From Alphaproteobacteria bacterium (lineage in GTDB: Bacteria > Pseudomonadota > Alphaproteobacteria > RF32 > CAG-239), in the NCBI GenBank assembly GCA_017484225.1, contig JAFUTN010000034.1, positions 17,844-81,843 of the forward strand: DNA of 64,000 nt, in the 5' to 3' direction. The notes beneath the pieces are model-generated. The model was not told where the DNA came from, did not search any database, and was given only the letters and a program-made list of their open reading frames with translations. The number at the start of each line of letters is the position of its first letter. Positions within the stretch are counted from its first letter, which is position 1. Positions 7,278 to 63,554 of the stretch are shown here, one piece after another. Position numbers and translations under genes: made by a program.

Positions 7278-7411
7278 AATAACCTTAAAAAACCTGAACC
7301 GTGTTTGCGAAGAACACGGCTCAAGCGAAAGGAATTGAGTGCATGGGTACGATATGCACTCAAAGTATGACTTTATTGTTGTTTATTTTCCGGATTGGTT
7401 TCAACAACAAT

Positions 7412-7645
7412 AAAAAGAGACCGCTGACAGGCGGTCGGGAAAGTTCCAAAATCATACACAGTAATGACTCTTTCGGTCTTTAAGCAGAGCTCTGGACATA
7501 CACCGAAAGCTCCCCGACCATTAGTCAGAGATTTTCCGTCCGCATACAGACGGGGAGGAAGATGAATAACCATCTTTTCACTGTGTAAAGGCTTTGGAAA
7601 GCCCCAAGCTTTATCAGCTTTTAACATGAAATAAATTTCATGCCT
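7412..7645 (-). ncRNA. candidate structured small RNA of unknown family (about 230 nt)
   Basis: Minus-strand promoter-like TTGCAT (7674-7679), 16-nt spacer, TATATT (7652-7657). At least six hairpins follow, and a long-range pairing TACACAGT/ACTGTGTA nests around GTCGGGGA...TCCCGAC. The element ends in a strong intrinsic terminator, GACCGC-CTGTCA-GCGGTC followed by TCTTTTT (7412-7436). The overlapping 84-aa ORF has no SD and runs through the terminator. Confidence 0.4.
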
Positions 7646-12657: not shown

Positions 12658-12940
12658 TTGACAACAAATTTTTTGTATGCTACCATTACGGCAGAATGAT
12701 TTTATATCGTTCCAGAACCTGAAAAAACGGTTCGGGGCTGTCAGAGGCTCTTTGTTCAGTGATACCAAAACAGGTATCCTTTAGGGATGCTTTTTGGTTT
12801 TAAATCCCCGCATTGGTCGGGGAGATTATGACGTATGTTCAAGCTTAATTTTTTGAGCTAAAGGTCATAATAGTCATTCCACTGAACATGATTTCTGAAC
12901 TCCCCTGACCGCTTCAAAAAATTGAGGTGGTTTTTTTTGG
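12658..12940 (+). promoter_or_regulatory. promoter plus structured leader RNA, copy A (variant), ending in an intrinsic terminator
   Basis: TTGACA (12658-12663), 17 nt, TACCAT (12681-12686). Hairpin GAACC-TGAAAAAAC-GGTTC. Helices are TGTTCAGTG/CACTGAACA, GGTCGGGGAG/CTCCCC(T)GACC and ATTATGAC/GTCATAAT. Terminator CCGCTTCAA-AAAA-TTGAGGTGG plus T8 (12909-12938) lies just upstream of the RBS GGGAGA and the ATG at 12965. Confidence 0.65.
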
Positions 12941-12964: not shown

Positions 12965-13921
12965 ATGAAAAAATTTAGAAACACAGGAAACGTCATTGCG
13001 ATGAGGCGTTTTAACGCCGACGTGGCAATCTCCCTCATCAAGGAAAGTATGAATAAAGAATCCTTATTTACAAGAGCCGCTTGTTTTTGGAGATTGCTAC
13101 GCCTGCGGCTCGCAATGACATTTTCTACTCTTACGTTTGTTTTGAGCCTTGGCACGGTGAGCGAATCGTGGGCGGCGTGTGTTGGGGCAACCGCCACTAC
13201 TGCCGGCACCGATGAGGACGGCGATTACTGCGGCACATGGGATTGCGGCGCTACCGGCAGCAACGTTACCTGTACCCTTTCCAAAGGCACTCTTACCATT
13301 TCCGGAGAAGGCGAAATGAAAGATTATGGTGCTAGTTGGACAGGTTGTGGAACATGCTATCCTAAATCATTGAAAACAACGGCACCTTGGAGTGGAAAAA
13401 TGGCAACTAAAGCAGTTATTGAGGGAAATGTGACCAGAATCGGAAATTTTACATTTGCCGGTGAGAGTTATTTAACCGAAATCAGAGGGACTGAAAGCCT
13501 CATTTCCATTGGTAGCTCGGCATTCAATCGCGTGGGGCTAGTGAGTATAGATATTCCAAACGTATTAACCTTAGATAATGCAGCTTTTCATAGAGCTTCT
13601 GATTTACAATATATTAATATGCGTGACGATATAATTTTAACAAATAATGATTGGTTTGGATATATGAATGGTACATTTTTAAATGTTGATGTAGTAAAAA
13701 ACTCTTGCGTTAGCAATCCGGAAACCGGCATGAAAACTTGCGGGTCATGCGGGGATAAATTTGTTCAAGCAGGTGCAGGATGTGTGGATAATTGTTTTGA
13801 CGGGTATTATGCAACAAATTATGATTTGTGCGAAAAAATCAAACTTCGTTATACCTTACCGGAAGCAGATGCGGCAACATCTGACGACAATGAAAATACG
13901 ATTGAGTGGATTTTTGAGTAA
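12965..13921 (+). CDS. secreted BspA-type LRR / Cys-rich protein with conserved C-terminal tail (paralogue 1)
   Basis: RBS GGGAGAAAG. The hydrophobic signal-like segment sits unusually far in (AMTFSTLTFVLSLGTVSESWAA). Also present: the CTLSKGTLTISGEGEMKDY module, LRR_5-like repeats, a Cys-rich stalk and the tail RYTLPEADAATSDDNENTIEWIFE. Confidence 0.8.
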   Translation: MKKFRNTGNVIAMRRFNADVAISLIKESMNKESLFTRAACFWRLLRLRLAMTFSTLTFVLSLGTVSESWAACVGATATTAGTDEDGDYCGTWDCGATGSNVTCTLSKGTLTISGEGEMKDYGASWTGCGTCYPKSLKTTAPWSGKMATKAVIEGNVTRIGNFTFAGESYLTEIRGTESLISIGSSAFNRVGLVSIDIPNVLTLDNAAFHRASDLQYINMRDDIILTNNDWFGYMNGTFLNVDVVKNSCVSNPETGMKTCGSCGDKFVQAGAGCVDNCFDGYYATNYDLCEKIKLRYTLPEADAATSDDNENTIEWIFE

Positions 13922-14082
13922 TCAGCTTGGCGAAAATTTTTCCGCTTATTCCATATCATAGTTGGGAATCCGGTCAAATTTGTCACACAACGCCTGATAG
14001 GCGGCCGCAATATTTTTGAATTTTTCTTCCGCTTCCTTGTCATCTCGGTTGATATCGGGGTGATATTTTTTTGCCAACTTTT
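13799..14082. repeat. 284-bp segmental duplication, copy 1 (partner 15158-15441)
   Basis: Near-identical to 15158-15441 at a constant offset of 1359 bp, with a handful of substitutions. It covers the last ~40 codons of the paralogue gene, the intergenic spacer and the 3' end of the J-domain gene. Confidence 0.9.
13946..14082 (-). pseudogene. relic 3' fragment of the J-domain protein gene (duplicate of the 15305-15441 region)
   Basis: The minus strand reads ...[44 protein letters not shown], matching the last ~45 residues of CDS 15305-15886. Similarity stops abruptly at 14082 and there is no start codon or N-terminal part. Confidence 0.85.
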
Positions 14083-14143
14083 AGGTACTTTTTATACCTC
14101 TACTCCTCGTGAAGCTTATATGTTGTGAACTCGCACATTTTTT

Positions 14144-14360
14144 TTGACAACAAATTTTTTTATCTTTATACTCAAAACAGAACATAAAAAGTGTTCTGAG
14201 GTGTGGAAACCTCCTAGAATAATGAAGTGCTTTATGCGCTTTTCAGTTGTGTATGCATGACTGGAAGGCGGTGTAATAAGGCTATATTAATGGTTAAATA
14301 AACCGCACTAAATTCTAGTAGTTTCCAACTTCCAGTCGCTTTTTTAAAGCGATTTTTTGT
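14144..14360 (+). promoter_or_regulatory. promoter plus structured leader RNA, copy B, ending in an intrinsic terminator
   Basis: TTGACA (14144-14149), 17 nt, TATACT (14167-14172). Hairpin GAACA-TAAAAAG-TGTTC. Helices are TGGAAAC/GTTTCCA, CTAGAAT/ATTCTAG, CTGGAAG/CTTCCAG and GCGGT/ACCGC, the last with an ATAAGGCTAT loop. Terminator is CGCTTT-TTT-AAAGCG plus T6. Confidence 0.7.
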
Positions 14361-14392
14361 TTATCAAAATTAAATGGGAAAGGAAAACTAAG

Positions 14393-15280
14393 ATGAAAAA
14401 GATAATTTTTACAGTAATAATGCTTTGCTGTATAACAATAAAATCTATTGCAGATGATTCTGCACCGACATCCGGAACTTGCAATTCTTCCGGAACCTGC
14501 TTGTGGAATCTAAGCGAAGACGGAACCCTGACAATTTCCGCCAAACCGGGGGCGGAAGACGTTAAAACGGACAATTATCGCTGTGATGATGCCAGTGTAT
14601 CAATATGTCGTGAGAGAGGAACTCTTATTGAGAGGCCTTGGGAAGCGAATCTTGAACAAATTAAAAAGGTTGTTATCGGCGATAATATTTCATACATAGG
14701 TGATGATGCCTTTCAGCTGGCTTCAAATTTAAAATCGGTTACCGGCATGAATGATTTGCAATCTATAGGAAACTACGGAGTGTTTGCCTACACCGGTTTA
14801 ACAGAGTTTACTATGCCGGAAAACATTTCTACTGTCGGTAGTCGTGCTTTTGCCTATACTCCTTCATTGAAAAATTTAATTATTCCGGACCAAATTGAAA
14901 CCATAAGTGCAGATTTCTTTCAACATTTGTCTTCCGGTGCAAATATTACGTGCTTGGGAAATATTGCCTCCTGTAATGCAAAATTGGCAAAATTTTTTAA
15001 AAAAACAGATTGCCCTGAAGGTTTTACCTGTAATTGCACAAGTAACTGCATAAAAACAAGCCAAGTAAAACCGGCATCCGAGACTCAATGTATCGGAGTA
15101 AATTATTACTGGAACGGAGTAAGCTGCGATAATAAAAAAGACGGTATAAATTGTGCCGACGGGTATTATGCAACAAATTATGATTTGTGCGAAAAAATCA
15201 AACTTCGTTATACCTTACCGGAAGCAGATGCGGCAACATCTGACGATAATGAAAATATGATTGAGTGGATTTTTGAGTAA
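14393..15280 (+). CDS. secreted BspA-type LRR / Cys-rich protein with conserved C-terminal tail (paralogue 2)
   Basis: The track ORF starts at 14357 inside the leader terminator. The likely start is ATG 14393 (RBS GGGAAAGGAAAA), giving signal peptide MKKIIFTVIMLCCITIKSIA. Also present: the GTCNSSGTCLWNLSEDGTLTISA module, LRR_5-like repeats (IGDDAFQLASNLKSV, VGSRAFAYTPSLKNLIIP), CIGVNYYWNGVSC and the tail RYTLPEADAATSDDNENMIEWIFE. Confidence 0.85.
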   Translation: MKKIIFTVIMLCCITIKSIADDSAPTSGTCNSSGTCLWNLSEDGTLTISAKPGAEDVKTDNYRCDDASVSICRERGTLIERPWEANLEQIKKVVIGDNISYIGDDAFQLASNLKSVTGMNDLQSIGNYGVFAYTGLTEFTMPENISTVGSRAFAYTPSLKNLIIPDQIETISADFFQHLSSGANITCLGNIASCNAKLAKFFKKTDCPEGFTCNCTSNCIKTSQVKPASETQCIGVNYYWNGVSCDNKKDGINCADGYYATNYDLCEKIKLRYTLPEADAATSDDNENMIEWIFE

Positions 15281-15441
15281 TCAGATTGGCGAAAATTTTT
15301 CCGCTTATTCCATATCATAGTTGGGAATCCGGTCAAATTTGTCACACAACGCCTGATAGGCGGCCGAAATATTTTTGAATTTTTCTTCCGCCTCCTTGTC
15401 ATCTCGGTTGATATCGGGGTGATATTTTTTTGCCAACTTTT
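15158..15441. repeat. 284-bp segmental duplication, copy 2 (partner 13799-14082)
   Basis: See copy 1. In this copy the repeat runs into the intact J-domain gene. Confidence 0.9.
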
Positions 15442-17845: not shown

Positions 17846-19270
17846 ATGGTAACTATGGCTGAAGAAGCAATACAGAATGAAAATTTTTCAATCAACCAGG
17901 AATGGGAACAAATATGTAGTCAGCTGAAAATGGAATTTGGCGAAACAGCTTTTGAAAGCTGGCTTAAACCTCTCAGTGTCGGTGATTTTAATGATGGTAT
18001 TATGAATATATGCGTTCCGACAACTTTTATGAAAAATTGGGTTATTGCACACTATTCTGACAGAATCCATAAAATTTGGGAACACAAGAATCCGGACATA
18101 AAAAAAGTATGTTTTGTTGTGCAGAACAGTGCTTCCGGTAATGTTAAGGTTGATGTATCGTTGCTCAAAAAAATTAAATCAACCCCGACTCCTCAAAGTA
18201 TATACGGTTTAAATGATGTAACGGCTCCGTGCGGTAATGACCAGTATTTGTCATCTCAGTTAAATCCGTCTTATACTTTTGAAAACTTTGTTGTCGGCAA
18301 AACAAATGAGTTTGCTTATGCTGCCGCCAAAAAAATTGCCGAATCCCGCAATGTGGCTTTTAATCCGCTGTTTTTGTATTCCGGTGTCGGATTGGGAAAA
18401 ACCCACCTGATGCACGCTATTGCATGGCATATTAAGAAACAGGATCCGAGTCGCACCGTTGTTTACATTTCGGCCGAGCAATTTTTATATAAATTCGTAA
18501 AAGCAATGCGCTATAAAGATACGGCGGCTTTTAAAGAACAATTTCGTTCGGTTGATGTCTTGATGATTGATGATGTTCAATTTTTGGCAAACAAAGTTAA
18601 GACTCAGGAAGAATTTTTCTATACTTTTGATTCTTTAATGGAAGGCGGCCGACAAATTATATTATCGGCGGACAAATCTCCAAATGATTTGGACGGCATA
18701 GAAACACGTCTAAAGTCACGTTTGAACAGCGGTTTGGTTGCCGACATTATGCCGACCGACTTTGACTTGAGAATCGGTATTTTGAACAAAAAAGCAGAGC
18801 AAATGGGAGTTAAACTTCCGCAAAATGTTGCTGATTTTCTGGCTCAAAAAATATCATCAAACATTCGTGAACTTGATGGCTCATTGAAAAGAATCGTTGC
18901 ACATTCTCAGTTGTTGCCGAGTCATGAAATTACTTTAGATATGACGCAAGAAGTGTTAAAAGATATGCTTCGTTCTTTTGAGCGCAAAACGACTATTGAT
19001 GAAATTCAGAAAAAAGTTGCTGAGTTCTACAATATTTCAGTTCGCGAAATGCAGTCGTTGCGTCGCGCCCGCAATGTGGCTCGTCCTCGTCAAATCGCCA
19101 TGTATCTCGCCAAGCAGCTGACATCTCGCTCGTTGCCGGAAATCGGCCGCAAGTTTGATCGTGATCACACGACGGTTATGCACGCGGTCAGAAAGGTTGA
19201 AGAACTGATGGTGGAAGATGCTGCTTTAGCCGAAAATATTAATGCTTTGCAAAAGGCTTTGGAAGAATAA
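17846..19270 (+). CDS. dnaA: chromosomal replication initiator protein DnaA
   Basis: AAA+ Walker A GVGLGKTHL, box VII/sensor motifs, and a C-terminal DNA-binding helix DHTTVMHA. The ATG at 17855 has better SD spacing than 17846. Confidence 0.95.
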   Translation: MVTMAEEAIQNENFSINQEWEQICSQLKMEFGETAFESWLKPLSVGDFNDGIMNICVPTTFMKNWVIAHYSDRIHKIWEHKNPDIKKVCFVVQNSASGNVKVDVSLLKKIKSTPTPQSIYGLNDVTAPCGNDQYLSSQLNPSYTFENFVVGKTNEFAYAAAKKIAESRNVAFNPLFLYSGVGLGKTHLMHAIAWHIKKQDPSRTVVYISAEQFLYKFVKAMRYKDTAAFKEQFRSVDVLMIDDVQFLANKVKTQEEFFYTFDSLMEGGRQIILSADKSPNDLDGIETRLKSRLNSGLVADIMPTDFDLRIGILNKKAEQMGVKLPQNVADFLAQKISSNIRELDGSLKRIVAHSQLLPSHEITLDMTQEVLKDMLRSFERKTTIDEIQKKVAEFYNISVREMQSLRRARNVARPRQIAMYLAKQLTSRSLPEIGRKFDRDHTTVMHAVRKVEELMVEDAALAENINALQKALEE

Positions 19271-19359
19271 AAAAATTGTTGAAGACTCTGCATTTTATCT
19301 TCTTATTTGCGACGATATTTGTTAGAGTCCGAATAGTTTAATATTTGGATGGTAAAAAG

Positions 19360-20478
19360 ATGAAATTTACGATAGAAAAATCAGTATTGTTAAAAACACT
19401 CGGACACGTTCAGAATATTGTTGAAAAACGCAATACCGTTCCGGTGCTTTCCAATGTCAGAATTGAAGCCGGCAACGACGGTATCAGTTTCAAAGCAACA
19501 GATATGGATACCGAAATCACGGAAATTGTGGATGCCGGAATTTTAGAAAACGGAGCAATTACGGCTCCGGCTCACATGCTGTATGATATTGTGCGCAAAT
19601 TGTCTGACGGTTCGGAAGTTGAACTTGTGTATCCGGATGAAAAAGAACAATTATCAATTTCTTCCGGCAGATCTAAATTTTCGTTGCCGACAATCGGTGT
19701 TGAAGATTTTCCGGTTATTTCGGCTGATGCGCTTCCAACATCATTCAGCGTAAAACGTGAAGATTTGAAAGATGTTATTGATCGCACACAATTTGCGGCA
19801 TCTACCGAAGAAACAAGATATTACTTAAACGGCTTATATATTCATCCGAAAACCGAAGGCGAAACAAAAGTGCTGCGTGTGGTTGCAACTGACGGTCACC
19901 GTTTAGCCTGTGTGGAGACTCCGCTTCCGCAGGGTGCGGAAAAAATGCAAGGAGTTATTCTGCCGCGTAAAACCGTTGCCGAAATTCGCAAGTTGCTGGA
20001 CGATTCTTCAGCGGAAGAAATCAATATTTCTTTATCAGACAGCAAAGTTCGTTTTGTGTTGGAAGACATTACTCTGGCATCAAAATTGATTGACGGAACA
20101 TATCCGGACTACGAACGCGTTAGTCCGACGGATAATGACAAGATTTTGGAACTTAATGTCAAAAATCTTTCCACTGCCGTTGATCGTGTTTCGGTAGTTG
20201 CCGAAAGAACTCGTGCCATTAAAATGATTGTTAACACCAACCATATTGTGGTTACAACATCAAGTCCGGATTTAGGAAGTGCCGTTGAAGAAATGGAGGC
20301 AAGTTACGACAGCGAATCTTTGGAAATCGGATATAATTTCCGCTATTTGTTGGATATTCTGTCCGAAATTAAAGGAGATAATGCAAAATTCAGTTTCAAA
20401 GACAGTTCTTCACCTTCAATCATTCATGATACTTCGGATTCCAGCGCAATTTATGTATTGATGCCGATGAGAGTGTAA
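19360..20478 (+). CDS. dnaN: DNA polymerase III beta sliding clamp
   Basis: MKFTIEKSVLLKTLGHVQNIVEKRNTVPVLSNV..., ending in MPMRV. The track ORF begins at TTG 19345; ATG 19360 fits the family N-terminus. Confidence 0.94.
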   Translation: MKFTIEKSVLLKTLGHVQNIVEKRNTVPVLSNVRIEAGNDGISFKATDMDTEITEIVDAGILENGAITAPAHMLYDIVRKLSDGSEVELVYPDEKEQLSISSGRSKFSLPTIGVEDFPVISADALPTSFSVKREDLKDVIDRTQFAASTEETRYYLNGLYIHPKTEGETKVLRVVATDGHRLACVETPLPQGAEKMQGVILPRKTVAEIRKLLDDSSAEEINISLSDSKVRFVLEDITLASKLIDGTYPDYERVSPTDNDKILELNVKNLSTAVDRVSVVAERTRAIKMIVNTNHIVVTTSSPDLGSAVEEMEASYDSESLEIGYNFRYLLDILSEIKGDNAKFSFKDSSSPSIIHDTSDSSAIYVLMPMRV

Positions 20479-20479
20479 G

Positions 20480-21676
20480 TTGAGTGATTTAAACGAAAGA
20501 ATAAAACAAATTACAGTCAAAAAGTCAGGTGTTACTCGCCTGACTTTATCTGACTTCAGAAATTATCAAAACTTACGAATTGAATGTGAGATGTCGCCGC
20601 TGGTTATTACCGGAGACAACGGCAGCGGAAAAACAAATATTTTGGAGGCTCTTTCTTTTCTTACTCCCGGAAGAGGTTTACGCAGCGCTAAATTGTCAGA
20701 TATTAAATGCCTGAACTCAAAATCAGAAAACGGCGGATGGTCGGTGGCTGCCGAAATTTTGAAAAATGATGAGGAATACCTTATCGGAACCGGATTGCAA
20801 AACGCAGCGGAAGAATCTGCGGAAACGGGTGAGCAAAAAATTTATAGTCGCCGTATCATAAAAATCAATCAGCAAAAAATTTCACAACAAGCGGAGTTAG
20901 GTAAATACATTTCGGCAATTTGGGTAACTCCGCAAATGGACAGATTATTTCAGGGCGGACCGCAACCACGGCGCAGTTTTTTAGACAGGCTTGTTTATGC
21001 TTTTGATTTGGAACACGCAAAGCGCACGGCAAATTTTGAACATTTGTATCGGCAATGGTTTCAACTTTTGAAATCGGGCTGCAGAGATACTAAGTGGTTG
21101 GAATCCATTGAAACGGATATGTCTTCTTTAGCGGTTGCCATCGCTGCTGCCAGACGGGAATTAATTGCTCGCTTAAACACCTTTATTCTAAATGAGCCGG
21201 ATGACATTTTTCCGGATGTTCGTTTGGAACTTGACGGACCGGCAGAAAAAATGCTGGATACGGAACCGGCAATCAAGGTTGAGGATTTTTACTTGTCTCA
21301 TTTAAAAAAGCAAAGAAACAATGTTTTATATAATGAAAGTCCTGATGGGATAAACCGCACCGACTTCAGAGTTTTTTTCCGCAAAAAAAATATGCCGGCT
21401 GATTTATGCTCTACCGGAGAGCAAAAGGCTTTGCTTATCAGCATTATTTTGGCACAAACAAAATGCCAAATTTTGGACAGAGGATTTGCTCCGATTTTGT
21501 TGCTTGACGAGGTAACCACTCATTTGGATAATCAAAAAAGAGATGCCTTACTTCAAAAAATTTCCGATTTGAGCATTCAGGCATGGATAACCTCTACCGA
21601 ACCGCAAAATTTCGGGATTTTGAAAAATAAGGCGCAATTTTTTGCTGTTCGTAATAACTCAATTTTCAGTCTTTAG
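20480..21676 (+). CDS. recF: DNA replication and repair protein RecF
   Basis: Walker A GDNGSGKTNILEA, the signature STGEQKALLISIIL, a Walker B-like LLLDEV, and the dnaA-dnaN-recF order. Confidence 0.92.
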   Translation: MSDLNERIKQITVKKSGVTRLTLSDFRNYQNLRIECEMSPLVITGDNGSGKTNILEALSFLTPGRGLRSAKLSDIKCLNSKSENGGWSVAAEILKNDEEYLIGTGLQNAAEESAETGEQKIYSRRIIKINQQKISQQAELGKYISAIWVTPQMDRLFQGGPQPRRSFLDRLVYAFDLEHAKRTANFEHLYRQWFQLLKSGCRDTKWLESIETDMSSLAVAIAAARRELIARLNTFILNEPDDIFPDVRLELDGPAEKMLDTEPAIKVEDFYLSHLKKQRNNVLYNESPDGINRTDFRVFFRKKNMPADLCSTGEQKALLISIILAQTKCQILDRGFAPILLLDEVTTHLDNQKRDALLQKISDLSIQAWITSTEPQNFGILKNKAQFFAVRNNSIFSL

Positions 21677-23310: not shown

Positions 23311-23551
23311 TTTACAATTAAGCAAAGTTTTGCTAGAATCAGCGGCAGAGCATGAAAAAAGCATGCTTCAGGGCGTAAGAACTCTAAACAAAGATTAGTC
23401 GCGTGTATGCGATTTACAGGTTTTTACCGATATTTCGTTCTTTGTATGGACGGATGTCGGTGCGATAAGGCTATAGGCACGAAAACGCCGAGCCGTCTTT
23501 AATCTTTGTACGGTTTCTTAACATCCGCCCACCGATTTAGGTGGCTTTTTT
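23311..23551 (+). promoter_or_regulatory. promoter plus structured leader RNA, copy C, ending in an intrinsic terminator
   Basis: TTTACA (23311-23316), 17 nt, TAGAAT (23334-23339). Hairpin GCATG-AAAAAAG-CATGC is followed by TTCAGGGCG. Helices are TAAGAA/TTCTTA, ACAAAGATTA/TAATCTTTGT, GGATGT/ACATCC and CGGTG/CGCCG, the last with an ATAAGGCTAT loop. Terminator is CCACC-GATTTA-GGTGG plus CTTTTTT. Confidence 0.75.
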
Positions 23552-23586
23552 ATTAACTTTTTTGATTTAATGAAAGGATGTTTGAG

Positions 23587-24480
23587 ATGAAACATTTAAG
23601 ATTTTTGAGTTTGGTTTTGTTAACGTGCGCAAATTCTGCTACGGCAGCCGAATTGCCCTTAAGCGGCAGCTGCGGAAACGGTTGTTTATATGAAATCACC
23701 ACCAATGCAAACGGCAAAAAAGATTTGCGGGTTTATAACGCCCCGACTTATGAAGGCAAGGCATATATAGCTAATGCAGCGTTTGCAAACAGCGGTGTAA
23801 ATGTTGCCAACAATTATGAAGAATACCATGAAAATGCCGTATTTGATAAAATAACGATTGACGGAGATTTTGATATAATAGGAGGTTCCGCTTTTGAACG
23901 TAACAGAGCAACGGAAGTTGTTTTCAACGGAAAGGTTAGGGAAATAGGATATGGAGCTTTTGAACAAAACAATCTTACCTCCATTGATTTACCGGAGTCT
24001 CTTGAAAAAATCGGCGGAGAGGCTTTTCATGCAAATCCGTTAACAACTTTGGTTATTCCGGATTCGGTAACAAGTTTTGGAAGTTTTGGTAGCTCTACAT
24101 TAGTAAATGTAACAATAACAGATACGCTGGAAAGTTTGGGAACTACTTATCCGTTTGGAGGCAACAGTAATTTATCTATTGTGTGCAAAGGAGATATTGA
24201 AAAGTGCAGAAGTTTGGTCAAAAAATATCGCCCAGATAATATTTCTACTGAAATAGACCTTTCCGGAAATGTTATTGCCGCAACTTATGAGCAATGTGAC
24301 GGGCAATATTTTTGGAACGGTATAGGCTGCGTAAAAGAGCCGGATATATCAAAACGTGCCTGCTGTCCGGTGTGTGCTGATTTAGACGGCTACTGCAGCC
24401 GTATTCGTTATACCTTGCCGGAGGCTGACAAAGCAACATCTGACGATAACGAAAATATGATTGAATGGATTTTTGAGTAA
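23587..24480 (+). CDS. secreted BspA-type LRR / Cys-rich protein with conserved C-terminal tail (paralogue 3)
   Basis: Signal peptide MKHLRFLSLVLLTCANSATA; the second ATG has the better SD spacing (AAAGGA). LRR_5-like repeats (IGGSAFERNRATEVVF, IGYGAFEQNNLTSIDLPESLEKIGGEAFHANPLTTLVIPDSV), CDGQYFWNGIGC...CCPVC, and the tail RYTLPEADKATSDDNENMIEWIFE. Confidence 0.85.
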   Translation: MKHLRFLSLVLLTCANSATAAELPLSGSCGNGCLYEITTNANGKKDLRVYNAPTYEGKAYIANAAFANSGVNVANNYEEYHENAVFDKITIDGDFDIIGGSAFERNRATEVVFNGKVREIGYGAFEQNNLTSIDLPESLEKIGGEAFHANPLTTLVIPDSVTSFGSFGSSTLVNVTITDTLESLGTTYPFGGNSNLSIVCKGDIEKCRSLVKKYRPDNISTEIDLSGNVIAATYEQCDGQYFWNGIGCVKEPDISKRACCPVCADLDGYCSRIRYTLPEADKATSDDNENMIEWIFE

Positions 24481-32973: not shown

Positions 32974-35900
32974 ATGTTGAAAAGTAAATTTATTTTCTCT
33001 GCCATGCTTTTAATGCTTTACGGAACGGCAAAGGCGCAAGAATTGGATATGGTTCCGGCTCCGAAGGTTCAGCAATCTCAAAAACAAGAAGAAGTGCCGC
33101 AAAATTCAAAGGTTGACGGAATAGCATTTATTGCTCCGACCAACAGCGTTAATATGGGAAAATCAGCATCAGAAGTTGTGATTACCCCGAAAGAAAAATT
33201 GGAATTTAAACAAAACGGTGAAGTTGAGGAAGCGCTTTTAAAAGAAGACGGGACTCCTTTTTCCGGTGCAACCGTTGTTACGGATGAAGAAGGTAGAGAC
33301 ATTACTTATTTTTATCGCAACGGCCGCAGAAGCGGTGTGGCGCTTTCCCATTTTGAAGATGGAAAGGTGGAGCTGGAAATTACTTACAGTAAAGGATATA
33401 AAAGCGGCGAAGAAATATTGTTCTATGAAAACGGTTATCCTAAATACAAAAAAACATACAGAAAAAATGTTTTGAACGGCGAAGAAATATTGTTCTACGA
33501 AAACGGTAAACCGGAACGCCGAAATATGTATGTTAACGGATTACTTGACGGTGAAATCAGTTATTTTGACCGCAACGGCAATTTGGTGAAAATAGAAAAT
33601 TACAAGTCCGGAAAAAAAGACGGAATTGAGCGTATAATAGAAAATAATCAGTTGTTGGAGGAAAATAATTATGTTGCCGGAGAACTGAACGGAATTACCA
33701 AAAAATATAACCGTGAACGCATGCTGGAAGAAATTGAATATAAAAACGGTAAAAGAAACGGAATAACAAAACGCTATTTGGATGATGGCGGCTGGGATGA
33801 GATTCCGTATAAAGACAATATGATAGAGGGTGTTGCAAAAAATTATTACCCGACCAAGCGTTTGGCAAGCATGACGCAATATGCCGTGAATATGAAAAAC
33901 GGACCAAGCGAAAAATATTATCAGAGCGGCAGTTTACAGCAGGCAGATAACTATAAAAACAATGTTCAAGAAGGTATCAGCCGAATGTTTGATGAAAGCG
34001 GAAATTTGCTGAGTGTCAGCTATTATGCCGGTGGTATTGAATTGGCAAAAGAAGATTTGCTTAATGATGCGGAAATCAAAAAAATTTATGATGCCGTGAA
34101 GGCAGATAAGCTTAATACCGTTTTGAATAACAAACAGTTATGGTATCCGGTTTTATGGCTCGGAATTTCTACCAACAGTCTGAAAATTTTGGATGAACTT
34201 GATAAAAGAATGAAAATGTATGCCACAAATATTGAAGATATTTCGGCGTATCAATCTAATTTGGTAAGGTTTTCCGAACAGAATCGCCGTTTGTTTTTCG
34301 GGCTTACACCGTTGAGTTATGCCGTAAATATGGCGTCTCCGGTGGAAATTTTACAGCGTTTTGCTTCCGGTCAGGATAGTGTGGAAATGAAAAACCCGCG
34401 CGGCGGATATGCAATTATTGAAGCGGTTCGTTTGAATAATTATGATTTAGTGCAATATTTGCTTTCTCATCATGCAGATGTCAAAAAAGTATATGATGAC
34501 GGTAACACCATTCTTTTGTATGCCGTAAAAGAAAAGGTTCGCAACGATATTATTGCAGCTTTGATTAAGGCCGGCGCAGACGTAAATGCGACAGATTCGT
34601 CGGGATACAGTTTATTAATGCTTGCCGTTCGTGACAACAATTTAGAGTTGTTGAAAGTGTTGCTGGATAATTATGCTGATTTTTCCGGCAAAACTCCCGA
34701 TGGCAAGAATATTCTCTCGTTTGCACTGGAAAATAATGCCTCAAAGGAAGTTTTGGAACAGTTGTTGATAAAGGGAGCTGATGTTAATGCAACAGATGAA
34801 GACGGAAGCGTTTTGATATTACGTGCTTTGGCGGCGGGCAAAGAAGATGTTGCAAAGTTGTTTATGCAATACGGTGCGGATATTAATGCCGAAAATGCCA
34901 ATCACGATACGGTCTTGACGTATGTGTTGGAAAACAAAACCGGAGATGATTTTGTTGCCGATATTTTTACACACAGTCTGGATGTTAAAAACAATTTGCC
35001 GAAATACAATAAACCTTTGTGGAAAATTTTGGCGGAACAAAACAAAATTGACTTGTTGAAAATTGTTTTGCAAAACATGGGTGGCGGTGCGGTTGCTGAT
35101 GCCAACGGTGAAATTCCGGTGGTGTATGCAATGGATAATTCCGAAAACCAAAAATTGAAAGAGGTTATTTTTGCGGCTCTGAATGAGGCGGTATTGAAGT
35201 CTCATCCCGAATTTTTGTGGAAAGCCGTGAAGGATAAAAAGTTTGATTTGTATAAGGAATTGCTGCAAAAGAAAAGTTCCGTCAATGTTACGGATGAAAA
35301 CGGTGACAGCCTGCTGCTTTATTTGATTAAAAACGAATATCCGTTTGAATATATTACGGAACTGGAAAATTATGCCGAGCTTGATTATATGGCAAAAGAT
35401 GCAACGGGCAAAACTGCACTGCAAATTGCCATAGAGGCGGATAATACCGCTTTGGTTGAAAATTTGCTGGCACACGGGGTTAGTCCCAATTCGGTTAATA
35501 ACGAAGGTAAATCTTTTATTGAAACACTTGACGGCAATCAGGAAAAAATTACCGAATTGTTATGGAATGCCGGCAGTAAAGATATGGTAACACCGGACAA
35601 TATTAACCTCTTGTTGCGTATCGCCGTTACAAATTTGAATGTTAAGTGGTTAGAGTTTTTGTTAAATGAGAATCCGGATGTGGCATACAAAGACGAAAAC
35701 GGAGAATATGCGCAAATGTATTTGGCTGATGCGCTGGAAAAGCATTCTGAATTACCTCAGGCCGAGATTTTAAACAAACTTGAAACCTGTTTCACCTTGC
35801 TGAAAGAGAAGGGGGCAGACATAAATTGGCAGAATAACAATGGAGAAACTTTGTTGATTAAGCTCTCCAAAGCAAAGAGTCAATACTACCCGTTGATTGC

Positions 35901-35997
35901 CGATTTGTTTGTGCGCTTAGGTGCTGATGCCGCCAAAAAAGACCAATATAACAAAACGGCGAAAGACTATGCTGTGGAATATTTGCCGGATATTTAG
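32974..35997 (+). CDS. secreted MORN(YwqK-type)-repeat and ankyrin-repeat protein
   Basis: Signal peptide MLKSKFIFSAMLLMLYGTAKA. About 10 YwqK/MORN-like repeats (YENGxxxxxxxYxNGxxxG) occupy residues ~100-350. Multiple ankyrin repeats follow (GYSLLMLAVRDNNLELLKVLLDNYAD, DGSVLILRALAAGKEDVAKLFMQYGADINA, and others) through to the C-terminus. Confidence 0.85.
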   Translation: MLKSKFIFSAMLLMLYGTAKAQELDMVPAPKVQQSQKQEEVPQNSKVDGIAFIAPTNSVNMGKSASEVVITPKEKLEFKQNGEVEEALLKEDGTPFSGATVVTDEEGRDITYFYRNGRRSGVALSHFEDGKVELEITYSKGYKSGEEILFYENGYPKYKKTYRKNVLNGEEILFYENGKPERRNMYVNGLLDGEISYFDRNGNLVKIENYKSGKKDGIERIIENNQLLEENNYVAGELNGITKKYNRERMLEEIEYKNGKRNGITKRYLDDGGWDEIPYKDNMIEGVAKNYYPTKRLASMTQYAVNMKNGPSEKYYQSGSLQQADNYKNNVQEGISRMFDESGNLLSVSYYAGGIELAKEDLLNDAEIKKIYDAVKADKLNTVLNNKQLWYPVLWLGISTNSLKILDELDKRMKMYATNIEDISAYQSNLVRFSEQNRRLFFGLTPLSYAVNMASPVEILQRFASGQDSVEMKNPRGGYAIIEAVRLNNYDLVQYLLSHHADVKKVYDDGNTILLYAVKEKVRNDIIAALIKAGADVNATDSSGYSLLMLAVRDNNLELLKVLLDNYADFSGKTPDGKNILSFALENNASKEVLEQLLIKGADVNATDEDGSVLILRALAAGKEDVAKLFMQYGADINAENANHDTVLTYVLENKTGDDFVADIFTHSLDVKNNLPKYNKPLWKILAEQNKIDLLKIVLQNMGGGAVADANGEIPVVYAMDNSENQKLKEVIFAALNEAVLKSHPEFLWKAVKDKKFDLYKELLQKKSSVNVTDENGDSLLLYLIKNEYPFEYITELENYAELDYMAKDATGKTALQIAIEADNTALVENLLAHGVSPNSVNNEGKSFIETLDGNQEKITELLWNAGSKDMVTPDNINLLLRIAVTNLNVKWLEFLLNENPDVAYKDENGEYAQMYLADALEKHSELPQAEILNKLETCFTLLKEKGADINWQNNNGETLLIKLSKAKSQYYPLIADLFVRLGADAAKKDQYNKTAKDYAVEYLPDI

Positions 35998-38705: not shown

Positions 38706-39569
38706 TTATTCAAAAATCCATTCAATCATATTTTCATTGTCGTCAGATGTTGCCGCATCCGCTTCCGGCAGGGTGTAACGTTTGCGTAAACATTCGTTAT
38801 ATATGTCGTCATAAGCATAACCGGCTCCACAGCCTGTTCCTTCTCTGATGCAGGTATTATCTTTCAGCACATAGCCCGTTCCGCAGCCTTCCGTATCGTT
38901 TATACATTTCATTTCTTTGCCTAAATAACCGCTTCCGCAGTCAGAAACACATTCAGCTGATTTTACAAAACCGTCACATTTTTTAACGGTTTTTCCGCAA
39001 AGAGAAGTTCCTTGAAAATTTGTGCCGACAAAAATATTATTTGCCGGCAGATTGTTGCCACTAGCACAATTTATCGGTGCTGTTCCTTGATATAAAATCA
39101 CGGCACCGGACGGAACGGAAGTGAAAGCTCCTGTGCCGATAATTTCAACATTCGGCATCTCAACGGACTGTAAGGCAGTGCAATAAAAAAAAGAATCATA
39201 AGGTATTTCCTTAACATCTTTCATTCCCGATACGGTTTTTACGTTTGAGGCATTTTGAAATGCATTTTTGCCTATTTTGGAAATATTGTCTTTAATTACA
39301 ATGTTTTGAATTTGTTTTATATAGTCTTCCCAAGGGCGATTGCCGGCAAGAGCCGAGCAAGTTGAAGCACCTTCGCAAACATAATCATCCATAGACACAT
39401 TTTCAGTTCCTTCAGCGGCGGAAACGGTTAGCGTTCCGGAGGAATCTATTTCCCATAAGCAGGTTCCGCTTGAATTACAAGTGCCGGATACATTTGCATA
39501 AGTGTTTACGGAATACATCATTGATAAAAAAGTAAAATTAAGCAATTTAAAATGTTTCATATCAAACAT
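38706..39569 (-). CDS. secreted BspA-type LRR / Cys-rich protein with conserved C-terminal tail (paralogue 4)
   Basis: Signal peptide MKHFKLLNFTFLSMMYSVNTYA, the SGTCNSSGTCLWEIDSSGTLTVSA module, LRR_5-like repeats (IGKNAFQNASNVKTVSGM), four CxxGY Cys-rich modules, and the tail RYTLPEADAATSDDNENMIEWIFE. Confidence 0.85.
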   Translation of the reverse strand: MFDMKHFKLLNFTFLSMMYSVNTYANVSGTCNSSGTCLWEIDSSGTLTVSAAEGTENVSMDDYVCEGASTCSALAGNRPWEDYIKQIQNIVIKDNISKIGKNAFQNASNVKTVSGMKDVKEIPYDSFFYCTALQSVEMPNVEIIGTGAFTSVPSGAVILYQGTAPINCASGNNLPANNIFVGTNFQGTSLCGKTVKKCDGFVKSAECVSDCGSGYLGKEMKCINDTEGCGTGYVLKDNTCIREGTGCGAGYAYDDIYNECLRKRYTLPEADAATSDDNENMIEWIFE

Positions 39570-39593
39570 CCTTTCATTAAGTTAAAAAGTTAA

Positions 39594-39825
39594 CAAAAAA
39601 GCCACCTGAAATGGTGGGCGGATGTTGAGAAACCGTACTAAACTAAACGGCTCGGCGTTTTCGCGCTCATAGCCTTATCAAGCCGACATCCGCTCAAATT
39701 TGAACGAATCATCGGAAAAATATTTAATGCCGTGTTGCGGCAAGTTTAGTAAAGGGTTCTCACGCCCTGAAGTGCGTTTTTTCGCACTCTGAAATCAGGT
39801 TATCAAAATATCGCCGTAATGTAAA
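39594..39825 (-). promoter_or_regulatory. promoter plus structured leader RNA, copy D, ending in an intrinsic terminator
   Basis: On the minus strand: TTTACA (39820-39825), 17 nt, TAACCT (39797-39802). Hairpin AGTGCG-AAAAAA-CGCACT is followed by TCAGGGCG. Helices are TGAGAA/TTCTCA, TACTAAAC/GTTTAGTA, GGATGT/ACATCC and CGGC/GCCG, the last with an ATAAGGCTAT loop. Terminator is CCACC-ATTTCA-GGTGG plus CTTTTTT. Confidence 0.75.
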
Positions 39826-44740: not shown

Positions 44741-44769
44741 TTTGTGTCCTTTTAACCATAAAGTTTAAG

Positions 44770-61706: not shown

Positions 61707-61930
61707 TTTACAATCAAACATTGTTCTGCTATTGTTCATTCAGGACGTGGAAAAAACACGTTTCAGGGCGTAGTAACCCTTATACATGAATTTAGCGATA
61801 TTTAATCGTGCTGATGTTCGCATATTTTGTGAGCGGATGTCAGCCGAATAAGGCTATGCCAAATAGGCTGAGCCGTTTTCATGTATACGGTTTACTAACA
61901 TCCGCCCGCCATTTCGGTGGGATTTTTTTT
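61707..61930 (+). promoter_or_regulatory. promoter plus structured leader RNA, copy E, ending in an intrinsic terminator
   Basis: TTTACA (61707-61712), 17 nt, TATTGT (61730-61735). Hairpin ACGTG-GAAAAAA-CACGT is followed by TTCAGGGCG. Helices are TAGTAA/TTACTA, TATACATGAA/TTCATGTATA, GGATGT/ACATCC and CAGCC/GGCTG, the last with an ATAAGGCTAT loop. Terminator is CCCGCC-ATTTC-GGTGGG plus AT8. Confidence 0.75.
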
Positions 61931-61964: not shown

Positions 61965-62837
61965 ATGAGATATTGCATTTTGGGGATTTTAAGTTTGTTT
62001 TTTACGATTGGGCAGGCAAATGCCGAGGTTATAAGCTGCAATAACGGCAAATATGCGGACGGGACGGATTGTGTGTCCTGCGGAGCGGATTGTAACTGGA
62101 GTGTGGACTTGACAAGCGGAAAGCTTACGGTCAGCGGAAGCGGAAATATGAATAATTACCGTTTTTATACGGAAGATGACATAAATTATTCGTCCGCGCC
62201 GTGGGGAGGCTATAAAGACCGGATTACAGCAGTAGAGGTATCCGGAATGAACAGTATAGGTTCGTGTGCATTCTGCCATTTAGCTGTCAACAGCATACAA
62301 ATGGATGATTCCGTTAAAAAAATAAATGACAGCGCTTTCGCATGGAATGGTCGCGGTGCATCATCTGTTACTATGTCCGACGCATTAACGGATTTAGGCC
62401 ATATTGCTTTCAGAGGAAACAGCAGACTTAATACCCTTATCGTGCCGGCAACGTTAACGAATATCGGTTTAGGAGCGTTGGGTGGCAATAAAAACTTAAT
62501 CAAAGATATGAACATAGTATGTATGGGCGGCAAGCAAGAATGTGCATTGTTGCAAGAACGTTTACAAAACTATCAATTTTACGGTCTTGATTATTCAAGG
62601 GAGGTTTTGGACTTGTCCGCCAACGTAAGACTTGCCGGTGCCGAGGAATGTTTTTCAACAAATTATTATTGGAACGGGGCCGAATGTTTGAAAGAACCGG
62701 TATTGGCAAATCGTTTGTGTTGTCCGGAGTGTAAGATGATTGACGGAGAGTGTTACCGTGTTCGTTATACTTTGCCGGAAGCGGATGAGGTGACGTCCAA
62801 TGATAATGAGAATCTGATTGAATGGATATTTAATTAA
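61965..62837 (+). CDS. secreted BspA-type LRR / Cys-rich protein with conserved C-terminal tail (paralogue 5)
   Basis: The track start at 61917 lies inside the leader terminator. The likely start is ATG 61965 or 61956 (AAAAGGA), giving signal peptide MRYCILGILSLFFTIGQANA. Also present: the CGADCNWSVDLTSGKLTVSGSGNMNNY module, LRR_5-like repeats, CFSTNYYWNGAEC...CCPEC and the tail RYTLPEADEVTSNDNENLIEWIFN. Confidence 0.85.
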   Translation: MRYCILGILSLFFTIGQANAEVISCNNGKYADGTDCVSCGADCNWSVDLTSGKLTVSGSGNMNNYRFYTEDDINYSSAPWGGYKDRITAVEVSGMNSIGSCAFCHLAVNSIQMDDSVKKINDSAFAWNGRGASSVTMSDALTDLGHIAFRGNSRLNTLIVPATLTNIGLGALGGNKNLIKDMNIVCMGGKQECALLQERLQNYQFYGLDYSREVLDLSANVRLAGAEECFSTNYYWNGAECLKEPVLANRLCCPECKMIDGECYRVRYTLPEADEVTSNDNENLIEWIFN

Positions 62838-62930: not shown

Positions 62931-63554
62931 ATGAAAAAGTTTTTATTGTTGGCCGGTGTGGCTTGCTTGTTTGCCGCTAATGCTCAAGCAGAAGTTAGTC
63001 AATATGTTTCCGGCAAAGCATCATTGGATTTCAATAAAGTAAAAATTAAAGATGCTGATTTTGAAAGCAATGACATTTATCGTTGGAAATCTGATAAAAA
63101 TTTACCGGCTTCTCACCTTGCTTACGGTGCTAAATTCGGTTTTGTTCGCGGTGAAGTTGAATTGAACAATGCCGTTAACATGAAGCGTAATACTTTGGTT
63201 GATAACAGAAGAGAACCGAATGCCGTAATTGACAAATTTGAATTGTATAAGCATTCCTTAATGGCCAATGTTTACTTTGACTATTTGACATGCACACCTT
63301 GGACACCTTATGTTGGTGCCGGTCTCGGAACTTCTTATTTGAAAATGAAGTTTAATGACTCCTCTAAGTCTGCAATCAACTTGGCATGGCAAGTTATGGG
63401 TGGTATTACATACGATTTGAATGCGGAATGGACACTTGATCTCGGCTATCGTTATGCCGATTTGGGACGTGTTCGCAAAAATTACGGTTCTTCGGTTGTT
63501 AAGACTACTGTTCGTGACCACGAAATTTTGTTTGGTGCAAGATACTCATTCTAA
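62931..63554 (+). CDS. small outer-membrane beta-barrel protein (Omp25/OmpA-beta-barrel-like), paralogue 1
   Basis: Signal peptide MKKFLLLAGVACLFAANAQA, alternating amphipathic strands, and the C-terminal ...FGARYSF ending in an aromatic residue, as in beta-barrel OMPs. Confidence 0.75.
   Translation: MKKFLLLAGVACLFAANAQAEVSQYVSGKASLDFNKVKIKDADFESNDIYRWKSDKNLPASHLAYGAKFGFVRGEVELNNAVNMKRNTLVDNRREPNAVIDKFELYKHSLMANVYFDYLTCTPWTPYVGAGLGTSYLKMKFNDSSKSAINLAWQVMGGITYDLNAEWTLDLGYRYADLGRVRKNYGSSVVKTTVRDHEILFGARYSF

Follow-up and report, generated by a model that had tools for sequence, protein, structure and literature searches.

What the last 24 residues of a protein are for becomes a pressing question when five different proteins encoded within 64,000 nucleotides (nt) share them almost unchanged, as is the case in the stretch of contig JAFUTN010000034.1 (assembly GCA_017484225.1) that was analysed here and is referred to, at its full length, as the window. 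A first-pass annotation had taken this C-terminal tail for a candidate sorting or secretion tag on a family of secreted, cysteine-rich proteins with leucine-rich repeats (LRRs). The tail is real, lies outside all of the curated models searched and is carried by hundreds of proteins, while its function in sorting or anchoring is a well motivated but unproven proposal. The reading that we favour, and to which we would give a probability of roughly 0.5, is that the tail may act as a recognition tag without a membrane-spanning segment, read by one lineage-specific partner that sorts or anchors the family.

The five genes, here called A to E, and their tails, which belong to the E-type of the two tail types described further on, are as follows.

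Family gene A, 12965..13921, plus strand: LRR_5 ectodomain, Cys stalk and E-type tail; identical to NCBI MBR1399566.1.
Family gene B, 14393..15280, plus strand: signal peptide, LRR_5, Cys stalk with YYWNG, E-type tail.
Family gene C, 23587..24480, plus strand: signal peptide, LRR_5, YFWNG/CCPVC stalk, E-type tail.
Family gene D, 38706..39569, minus strand: signal peptide, LRR_5, CxxGY stalk modules, E-type tail.
Family gene E, 61965..62837, plus strand: signal peptide, LRR_5, YYWNG/CCPEC stalk, variant of the E-type tail with an IEWIFN end.
Tail of A, 13847..13918, plus strand: RYTLPEADAATSDDNENTIEWIFE.
Tail of B, 15206..15277, plus strand: RYTLPEADAATSDDNENMIEWIFE.
Tail of C, 24406..24477, plus strand: RYTLPEADKATSDDNENMIEWIFE.
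Tail of D, 38709..38780, minus strand: RYTLPEADAATSDDNENMIEWIFE.
Tail of E, 62763..62834, plus strand: RYTLPEADEVTSNDNENLIEWIFN.

Both the coordinates proposed for these open reading frames (ORFs) and their common C-terminus were confirmed, with RYTLPEAD(A/K/E)(A/V)TS(D/N)DNEN(M/T/L)IEWIF(E/N)-stop at five of five ends. The motif occurs exactly five times in a six-frame scan of the window, each time in a family ORF, and a degenerate DNA pattern for DxENxIEWIF has five matches there versus none in 100 shuffles. The rest of the described architecture was likewise recovered: the five proteins score 44-64 bits against the Pfam model of BspA-type LRRs (LRR_5, PF13306; curated cut-off 27.7), their alignment displays the N-terminal GTLT(I/V)S module, and the modules of the Cys-rich stalk (YYWNG/YFWNG, CCP.C or C.DGYY) are present. 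Membership of the BspA-type LRR class, by Pfam match and solenoid fold, holds for the ectodomain and not for the tail. In the databases the window proteins correspond to NCBI MBR1399566/568/578/605, on a 129-kb contig of an 'Alphaproteobacteria bacterium' metagenome-assembled genome (MAG).

The tail is not confined to these five genes. An exhaustive search of 1.84 billion cluster representatives (50% identity) with a 32-position profile of both tail types returned hundreds of carriers, 352 proteins at E<=1e-3 and 102 at E<=1e-10, and a word-indexed search with ORF B gave about 110 clusters at 90% identity with the same tail. Wherever a tail-bearing match has a source name, it is that of an 'Alphaproteobacteria bacterium' MAG, and the tail-carrying contigs sampled derive from ruminant gastrointestinal metagenomes. 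In a genome collection without this lineage, the degenerate DNA pattern of the tail matched six times, in an archaeon, Aquimarina, SAR86 and other unrelated taxa; these matches were taken as chance uninspected. Against the Joint Genome Institute (JGI) metagenomes the E-type alignment produced 164 pattern-matching stretches, none of which was confirmed by tblastn; the DNA-pattern matches DPENIIEWIF and DPENPIEWIF found there lie in unrelated proteins and are chance matches. Nothing relevant came up in full-text literature searches, whether for the sequence of the tail or for the lineage in combination with LRR terms. Neither Pfam nor NCBIfam (June 2026 release, searched as the likeliest home of curated models of C-terminal sorting domains) has a match even at E<=10, and the tail thus corresponds to no described sorting-domain model.

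No variation is seen at 14 of the 24 positions in 146 E-type tails, and the R-Y-T and E-A-D residues are invariant or nearly so. The T, E and A are also kept in the K-type, a different yet alignable tail of a few relatives, R(Y/W)TPAEA(A/N).(V/W)L.D(D/G)N.N.V.(I/L)TFKK, which has two subtypes that occur together in assembly GCA_045602545.1. Tails are present in several copies per genome (five in the 64-kb window, at least five in three loci of GCA_045602545.1), and among the sampled loci no assembly contains both the E and the K type. As judged from these alignments, the conserved core is [basic]-[Y/W]-T-x-x-E-A-(helix)-D-x-N-x-N-x-[I/V]-x-[W/I/L]-[I/T]-F-[charged]. The tail had also been described as acidic, which is true of the E-type of this lineage (net charge of the last 24 residues -4 to -7) but not as a general feature, since the sister K-type ranges from -4 to +1 and acidity therefore falls outside the conserved core.

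The claim that the tail is conserved at the level of the peptide is supported by Nei-Gojobori counts among the window copies. In the tail, with the A-B pair excluded, the proportion of synonymous differences (pS) is 0.41-0.88 and that of non-synonymous differences (pN) 0-0.12, compared with a pS of 0.64-0.75 and a pN of 0.43-0.59 in the rest of the genes; synonymous sites are thus nearly as diverged as elsewhere and non-synonymous change is about ten-fold lower. With pS near saturation and pN suppressed, selection acts on the peptide and not on the DNA, and these counts rule out that the conservation stems mainly from gene conversion or from an overlapping element in the DNA or RNA. Similarity of the DNA among copies extends from the Arg codon, where it sets in abruptly, as far as the stop codon. 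Genes A and B share in addition a direct repeat of 293 nt, 97% identical (13790-14082 and 15149-15441, plus strand), spanning the last ~130 nt of the coding sequence and ~160 nt of the 3' flank, which indicates that the 3' ends of this tandem pair have recently undergone duplication or gene conversion. Because the block covers both tails, and so reflects one recent event, the two are not independent samples.

The ectodomains that precede the tail are diverse. Apart from LRR_5 proteins, the carriers include proteins made up solely of Cys-rich repeats (P0128, P0297, P0358), a YD-like, Cys-rich protein (P0125), proteins without a Pfam match (among them P0120 and P0127, which are weakly LRR-like) and mini-proteins in which only a short linker separates the signal peptide from the tail. 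Without their tails, B and C have no significant similarity in BLASTP to P0128, P0125, P0297 and P0358 (E>=0.09); by this comparison the tail is modular and is carried by unrelated ectodomains. Conversely, the tails differ between B (E-type) and P0013 (K-type), although the two proteins have mostly 60-80% identity over about residues 20-130, so that, as far as such pairs tell, tail type tracks the genome and not the ectodomain. The mosaic allele P0010, from another sample, is 100% identical to B over its first ~50 and last ~65 residues, with 20-40% identity in parts of the LRR/stalk region, which suggests that ectodomains are exchanged or diversified between constant ends, in a cassette-like replacement between strains. 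LRR_5 homologues in other phyla carry in the same C-terminal slot the Por_Secre_tail of the type 9 secretion system (T9SS; PF18962, in P0236), a dockerin (PF00404, in P0240, P0248 and P0265) or a transmembrane (TM) segment with a basic tail.

Export of the family is suggested by its signal-like N-termini. When a hydrophobic stretch of 11 residues inside the first 45 is taken, in place of a SignalP prediction, as the heuristic criterion, 151 of the 161 E-type proteins qualify, and the others are mostly ORFs extended upstream through repeat elements. The ORF of gene A has an extension of this kind. A palindromic element of ~140 nt, similar to a miniature inverted-repeat transposable element (GTCATTGCGA...TCGCAATGAC; 12985-13126, plus strand), lies between its upstream ATG and its signal peptide and keeps the frame open, with a spurious N-terminal extension of 50 residues as the result; codons 1-50 (12965-13114) are a read-through of that element, and the true start is probably the ATG at 13115, giving MTFSTLTFVLSLGTVSESWA, a normal signal peptide onset. 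Similar read-through extensions occur in many family members in the databases, for example ...NEKNKSAVILNPERSEWVSRSHV... and ...CDKFSKSVSYETLVGG.... For gene D, the databases place the start at the ATG at 39560 (product of 284 aa), which is probably correct.

Family proteins contain a median of 11-13 Cys, the last of them 5-12 residues before the tail, which itself has none. The absence of a hydrophobic helix from the tail, noted from the outset, extends to all 254 family proteins scored, in which the longest hydrophobic run within the last 30 residues is 2-5 and never more than 5. Anchoring as lipoproteins was rejected, a lipobox-like motif being found in just 19 of the 254 members. Type I secretion was also set aside, as its substrates are those without a Sec signal peptide and this family combines signal-like N-termini with its many Cys.

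AlphaFold2 models were obtained for ORF B (99-sequence alignment) and the K-type P0013 (91-sequence alignment), with mean predicted local distance difference test (pLDDT) scores of 86.7 and 83.1, respectively. The LRR solenoid is confident in both, at about 90 or above; the stalk exceeds 90 in B and is lower in the K-type model. Foldseek places the ORF B model closest to BspA-type LRR structures, 4h09 (E=5e-7) and TpLRR 6mlx, and the tail profile found only insignificant matches among PDB sequences (E>=0.47). In both models the tail is predicted as a 9-11-residue helix (PEADAATS / PAEANQWLKDD) followed by coil, outside the fold and with a pLDDT of 62-77. This low-confidence placement fits an exposed tail.

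These observations can be accommodated in a simple scheme. The signal peptide, visible as the hydrophobic N-terminus, would direct the protein across the inner membrane, and the Cys-rich ectodomain would fold in the periplasm, leaving the tail exposed beyond the last disulfide module. The tail would there begin with a basic residue, followed by an aromatic one and Thr; an N-capped helix and the D-x-N-x-N turn would come next, and then an amphipathic beta-strand that runs to the Phe and its one or two charged residues. A single lineage-specific partner, conceivably a component for sorting or anchoring in the periplasm or the outer membrane, would bind the tail, most simply by beta-strand augmentation with the terminal amphipathic strand as the likely contact, and would tether the members to the cell surface or route them there. 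Genomes appear to use either E or K tails throughout, irrespective of the ectodomain, a pattern to be expected where one receptor co-evolves with a multitude of tails. We hold it to be about an even bet that the last 24-27 residues constitute an autonomous recognition module, set on a large paralogous group of disulfide-rich, variable surface or adhesin-like proteins in one uncultured lineage of gut Alphaproteobacteria.

Several points weigh against this reading. The tail has neither the TM helix nor the Arg cluster found in every enzyme-processed C-terminal sorting signal described so far. Its low pLDDT is weak evidence for a place outside the fold, because the near-invariant columns of the E-type tail give AlphaFold no covariation to work with. 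No recurrent protein-coding neighbour of the family genes was found, the neighbours being housekeeping genes that differ between loci, and no partner or machinery was found in the neighbourhoods of the window and of the sampled loci.

A helix and a strand within 24 residues would, moreover, suit an element of self-association equally well. In that case the tail might form a beta-alpha-beta-like unit (RIRYT strand, helix, VTITF/IEWIF strand) which pairs with that of other members, building dimers or arrays, or which folds onto the last Cys module as a cap, and we regard this as unlikely. Packing of the helix on the strand is suggested by the way in which a bulky V/W-L accompanies I-T-F in the K-type and a small A-T accompanies W-I-F in the E-type; modules this short rarely fold alone, in line with the low pLDDT of the monomers, and a uniform tail type per genome would also be expected if tails recognise each other. 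However, AlphaFold does not dock the tail on the stalk, and a module carried by unrelated ectodomains and mini-proteins can be no cap for one fold, while self-association alone leaves the constant place at the extreme C-terminus unexplained. The terminal strand invites comparison also with ligands of PDZ domains, which bind extreme C-terminal beta-strands with aromatic or hydrophobic residues near the carboxylate (DegS, Prc). The tail could accordingly be read by a PDZ-type protease or quality-control factor of the periplasm (DegP/DegQ/CtpA-like), as a degradation or processing tag that sets member levels; conserved basic residues just before the tail (K.KLR|Y, RIR|Y, AKKR|W) offer a possible cleavage site, and the lineage has a DegQ-like gene (Trypsin_2 plus PDZ). 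We consider this improbable, given that PDZ ligands need 3-5 terminal residues and the tail conserves 24, that the terminal residues themselves vary (E/N versus KK), and that DegQ-like genes are general housekeeping genes without specific linkage to the family.

The two remaining explanations place the function outside the envelope or deny the peptide a function altogether. BspA-type LRR and Cys-rich repeat domains, of which the ectodomains are built, are typical of host-interaction proteins, and proteins with eukaryote-like repeats, one of 1007 aa with ankyrin repeats and others of the Sel1 kind, are present in the genome, so that the tail might be a host-directed short linear motif or effector handle that binds a protein of a eukaryotic host or of a rumen protist after secretion. 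Its chances appear slim, as two tail types so unlike in charge would need to address the same host target. At the level of DNA, the conserved 3' end could be a homology block for gene conversion or cassette exchange in the style of antigenic variation, with a peptide that has no function of its own. The mosaic P0010 and the 293-nt A/B block are what would be expected of such a block, yet the synonymous and non-synonymous counts among the A/B, C, D and E tails largely refute it and leave it very improbable; besides, 72 nt with so many mismatches make a poor recombination substrate, and the K-type realises the same peptide pattern with quite different codons.

The recognition tag remains, then, the reading that we favour, and nearly all the family genes share a further feature on their 5' side. 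Alignment of the upstream regions revealed a conserved leader of ~100 nt followed by a stem and a T-run terminator, ~35 nt before the ribosome-binding site. In the window the leaders and associated sites, with bit scores for the covariance model R1, are:

Leader and terminator of A, 12811..12938, plus strand: subtype 2 (GGGGAG...CTCCCC); R1, 38.6 bits, E=4e-8.
Leader and terminator of B, 14254..14361, plus strand: subtype 1; R1, 88.6 bits; covariation.
Leader and terminator of C, 23443..23554, plus strand: R1, 87.3 bits; covariation.
Leader and terminator of D, 39592..39700, minus strand: R1, 91.4 bits; covariation.
Leader and terminator of E, 61826..61930, plus strand: R1, 85.6 bits; covariation.
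Promoter-like site of C, 23311-23339: TTTACA-17-TAGAAT.
Promoter-like site of E, 61707-61735: TTTACA-17-TATTGT.
Orphan leader copy, 7410-7523, minus strand: subtype 2, 40 bits, own terminator; no ORF before the convergent hpt gene.

R1 was built from nine copies and searched against ~209 kb of window and loci, where it found 20 leader copies, 17 of them directly upstream of tail-family genes. Each of the five window genes is preceded by one of these 17, and E-type as well as K-type genomes are represented; copies are also present at loci L014, L017, L018, L019 and L020. Outside the family, two copies stand in tandem before an 80-aa non-family ORF and one is the orphan, over which public gene calls put an 84-aa ORF and which could be a stand-alone small RNA or a remnant. 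One family gene (P0034, at L021) has no leader copy. Two subtypes can be distinguished, GGAAG...AATAAG...CGAATA...CAACTTCC and GGGGAG...CGTATGT...AAAGG...CAACTCCCC. For 13 subtype-1 copies, a structure of three stems (P1 enclosing P2 and P3) leaves 90.7% of cells paired versus 29-46% with slid partners, with compensatory changes at four of nine P1 pairs (e.g., CGGATG/CATCCG versus TGGAAG/CTTCCA) and at five of five P2 pairs; in P3, variants are seen by eye (CCGT/ACGG, CTAT/ATAG, TCAT/ATGA), the formal count being blurred by a register shift of one column.

The promoter-like sites of C and E lie ~100 nt upstream of P1, and no such site was found between terminator and start codon of these two genes. 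This layout is that of a transcription attenuator or riboswitch, and the leader is a candidate for a new regulatory RNA. At gathering score Rfam 15 assigns it to no family, finding only the transfer-messenger RNA (tmRNA) and 6S RNA in the window, and sensitive scans of three leader copies gave sub-threshold, inconsistent matches only; one of these, sRNA-Xcc1 (RF02221), was rejected at 27 bits versus a gathering score of 53 in one copy, as it was not reproduced on the two others. Family genes are accordingly laid out as promoter, structured leader with terminator, signal peptide, variable ectodomain, Cys stalk and constant tail, and the family looks like a co-regulated regulon under a conserved leader with an intrinsic terminator. 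Taken to its full extent, the proposal would be of a previously unknown pathway of surface-protein sorting or anchoring, with a helix-turn-strand tag of 24-27 residues in co-evolving E and K dialects, perhaps dozens of adhesins per genome, and a regulon switched by a new riboswitch-like class of leaders; we put this forward tentatively, as a possibility more doubtful than that of the tag itself.

The genomic surroundings match the earlier remark that no cognate machinery is visible in the window, since Pfam annotation of the unannotated window ORFs gave nothing that could be linked to the tail. Family genes occur singly or in pairs among housekeeping genes (polA, PBP1A, dnaA-dnaN-recF, metG, dnaB and a ribosomal-protein operon). 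The dnaA-dnaN-recF cluster (17846-21676, plus strand) has three family genes within 6 kb, and from this cluster the window probably adjoins the chromosomal replication origin. Directly 3' of gene E lie two tandem genes for outer-membrane beta-barrels of ~207 aa (OMP_b-brl / Surface_Ag_2 / Opacity; window 62931-63554, plus strand, and L008 11767-12393), for which no evidence of linkage to the tail was found. An ORF of 2103 aa (45127-51438, minus strand) contains an N-terminal M48 peptidase segment (residues 77-141) and ~1950 other residues without a Pfam match; it was considered as tail machinery and dropped, as its Pfam annotation offers no link to the tail. This giant ORF is flanked by a permuted, two-piece alphaproteobacterial tmRNA (220 bits; 44765-45102, minus strand) on one side and by 6S RNA (66 bits; 51531-51687, minus strand) on the other. 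The ankyrin-repeat protein, with its eukaryote-like repeats, is encoded at 32974-35997 (plus strand) and suggests that the bacterium may interact with a host or protist.

C-terminal tags have been rewarding starting points, as LPXTG, PEP-CTERM, GlyGly-CTERM, MYXO-CTERM and the larger C-terminal domain (CTD) of T9SS substrates have each brought a dedicated envelope machine to light. The small tags described so far all have, to our knowledge, a TM helix and a basic cluster. A tail with the same genomic hallmarks and neither of these, in a diderm outside the Bacteroidota, would point to a different recognition mechanism. It would also offer a handle on the surface biology of an abundant, uncultured alphaproteobacterial lineage of the rumen and gut, in which it marks a clean regulon of variable, mosaic, adhesin-like proteins. 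The leader before almost every member provides a second entry point, as a candidate riboswitch or attenuator of surface-protein expression, and hidden Markov models (HMMs) of the tail as well as the covariance model of the leader could be used in annotation pipelines straight away.

How the tail compares with known systems is best judged against the eight attributes of tripartite C-terminal sorting domains, a class that comprises LPXTG/sortase, PEP-CTERM/exosortase, GlyGly-CTERM/rhombosortase and MYXO-CTERM/myxosortase (Haft, bioRxiv 10.1101/2023.06.07.544157). Six of these (1, 2, 3, 6, 7 and 8) are found here as well: the C-terminal position (1), the match ending at the last or second-to-last residue in 150 of the 150 matches listed from the exhaustive profile search; multiple paralogous copies per genome (2); invariant signature residues (3); N-terminal signal peptides in most members, by the heuristic used (6); unrelated carriers, pairs of which have only the signal in common (7); and homologues in other lineages with another C-terminal signal or none (8), here PF18962, PF00404 or a TM segment with a basic tail. 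The tail differs in having no hydrophobic segment of TM length (4) and no terminal basic, mostly Arg, cluster (5), the E-type ending in F-E or F-N and the K-type in K-K only, as well as in the lack of an HMM match and of any candidate processing enzyme found. The missing TM helix and Arg cluster rule it out as a substrate of sortase, exosortase, rhombosortase or myxosortase, in agreement with the first-pass annotation, which had seen no resemblance to LPXTG, PEP-CTERM, GlyGly-CTERM or the T9SS CTD. Of the sorting-tag proposal as first made, the modularity, the six shared attributes and the lack of a known model stand, whereas the emphasis on acidity does not, and the cognate machinery was not found.

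Further likenesses exist to modules that act by binding. Dockerins (PF00404) of cellulosomal Clostridia are small C-terminal modules on diverse proteins, including the LRR_5 homologues P0240, P0248 and P0265, they come in lineage-specific types that co-evolve with one scaffold partner (cohesin), and they possess an Asp/Asn-rich loop, D-x-N-x-D-G compared with D-x-N-x-N in the tail. However, a dockerin consists of a duplicated calcium-binding loop-helix of ~22 residues, ~70 residues in total, compared with a single helix-turn-strand in the tail, and the host of the tail has a Gram-negative envelope; with no PF00404 match and a single D-x-N-x-N turn per tail, type I dockerin was excluded. An EF-hand reading by eye of D-D-N-E-N-M-I-E-W-I-F-E was also discarded, position 1 being N in a third of the E-type and position 12 being K in the K-type. 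Systems that recognise a C-terminal beta-strand, namely the beta-signal of outer-membrane proteins read by BamA/BamD, the DegS-activating YxF peptides and the C-termini of pilus subunits bound by PapD-type chaperones, have in common with the tail a terminal amphipathic strand with alternating hydrophobics and an aromatic residue near the carboxyl end. In the tail, however, the Phe is followed by one or two charged residues and is not the last residue, there is no upstream beta-barrel or pilin fold, and a conserved helix and turn come before the strand.

The T9SS CTD of the Bacteroidota (PF18962 / TIGR04183) is a beta-sandwich of 70-100 residues, compared with the 24-30 residues of the tail, modelled as a helix followed by a short strand or coil, and the host of the tail is an alphaproteobacterium. 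The two have no sequence similarity, and the T9SS CTD was excluded as an identity for the tail, there being no match to either model even at E<=10. Like the tail, however, the CTD has no membrane-spanning segment, is borne by Sec-exported proteins of a diderm and terminates variable adhesins and enzymes, including the LRR_5 protein P0236. In its presumed way of working, it is the closest known case to the tail described here.

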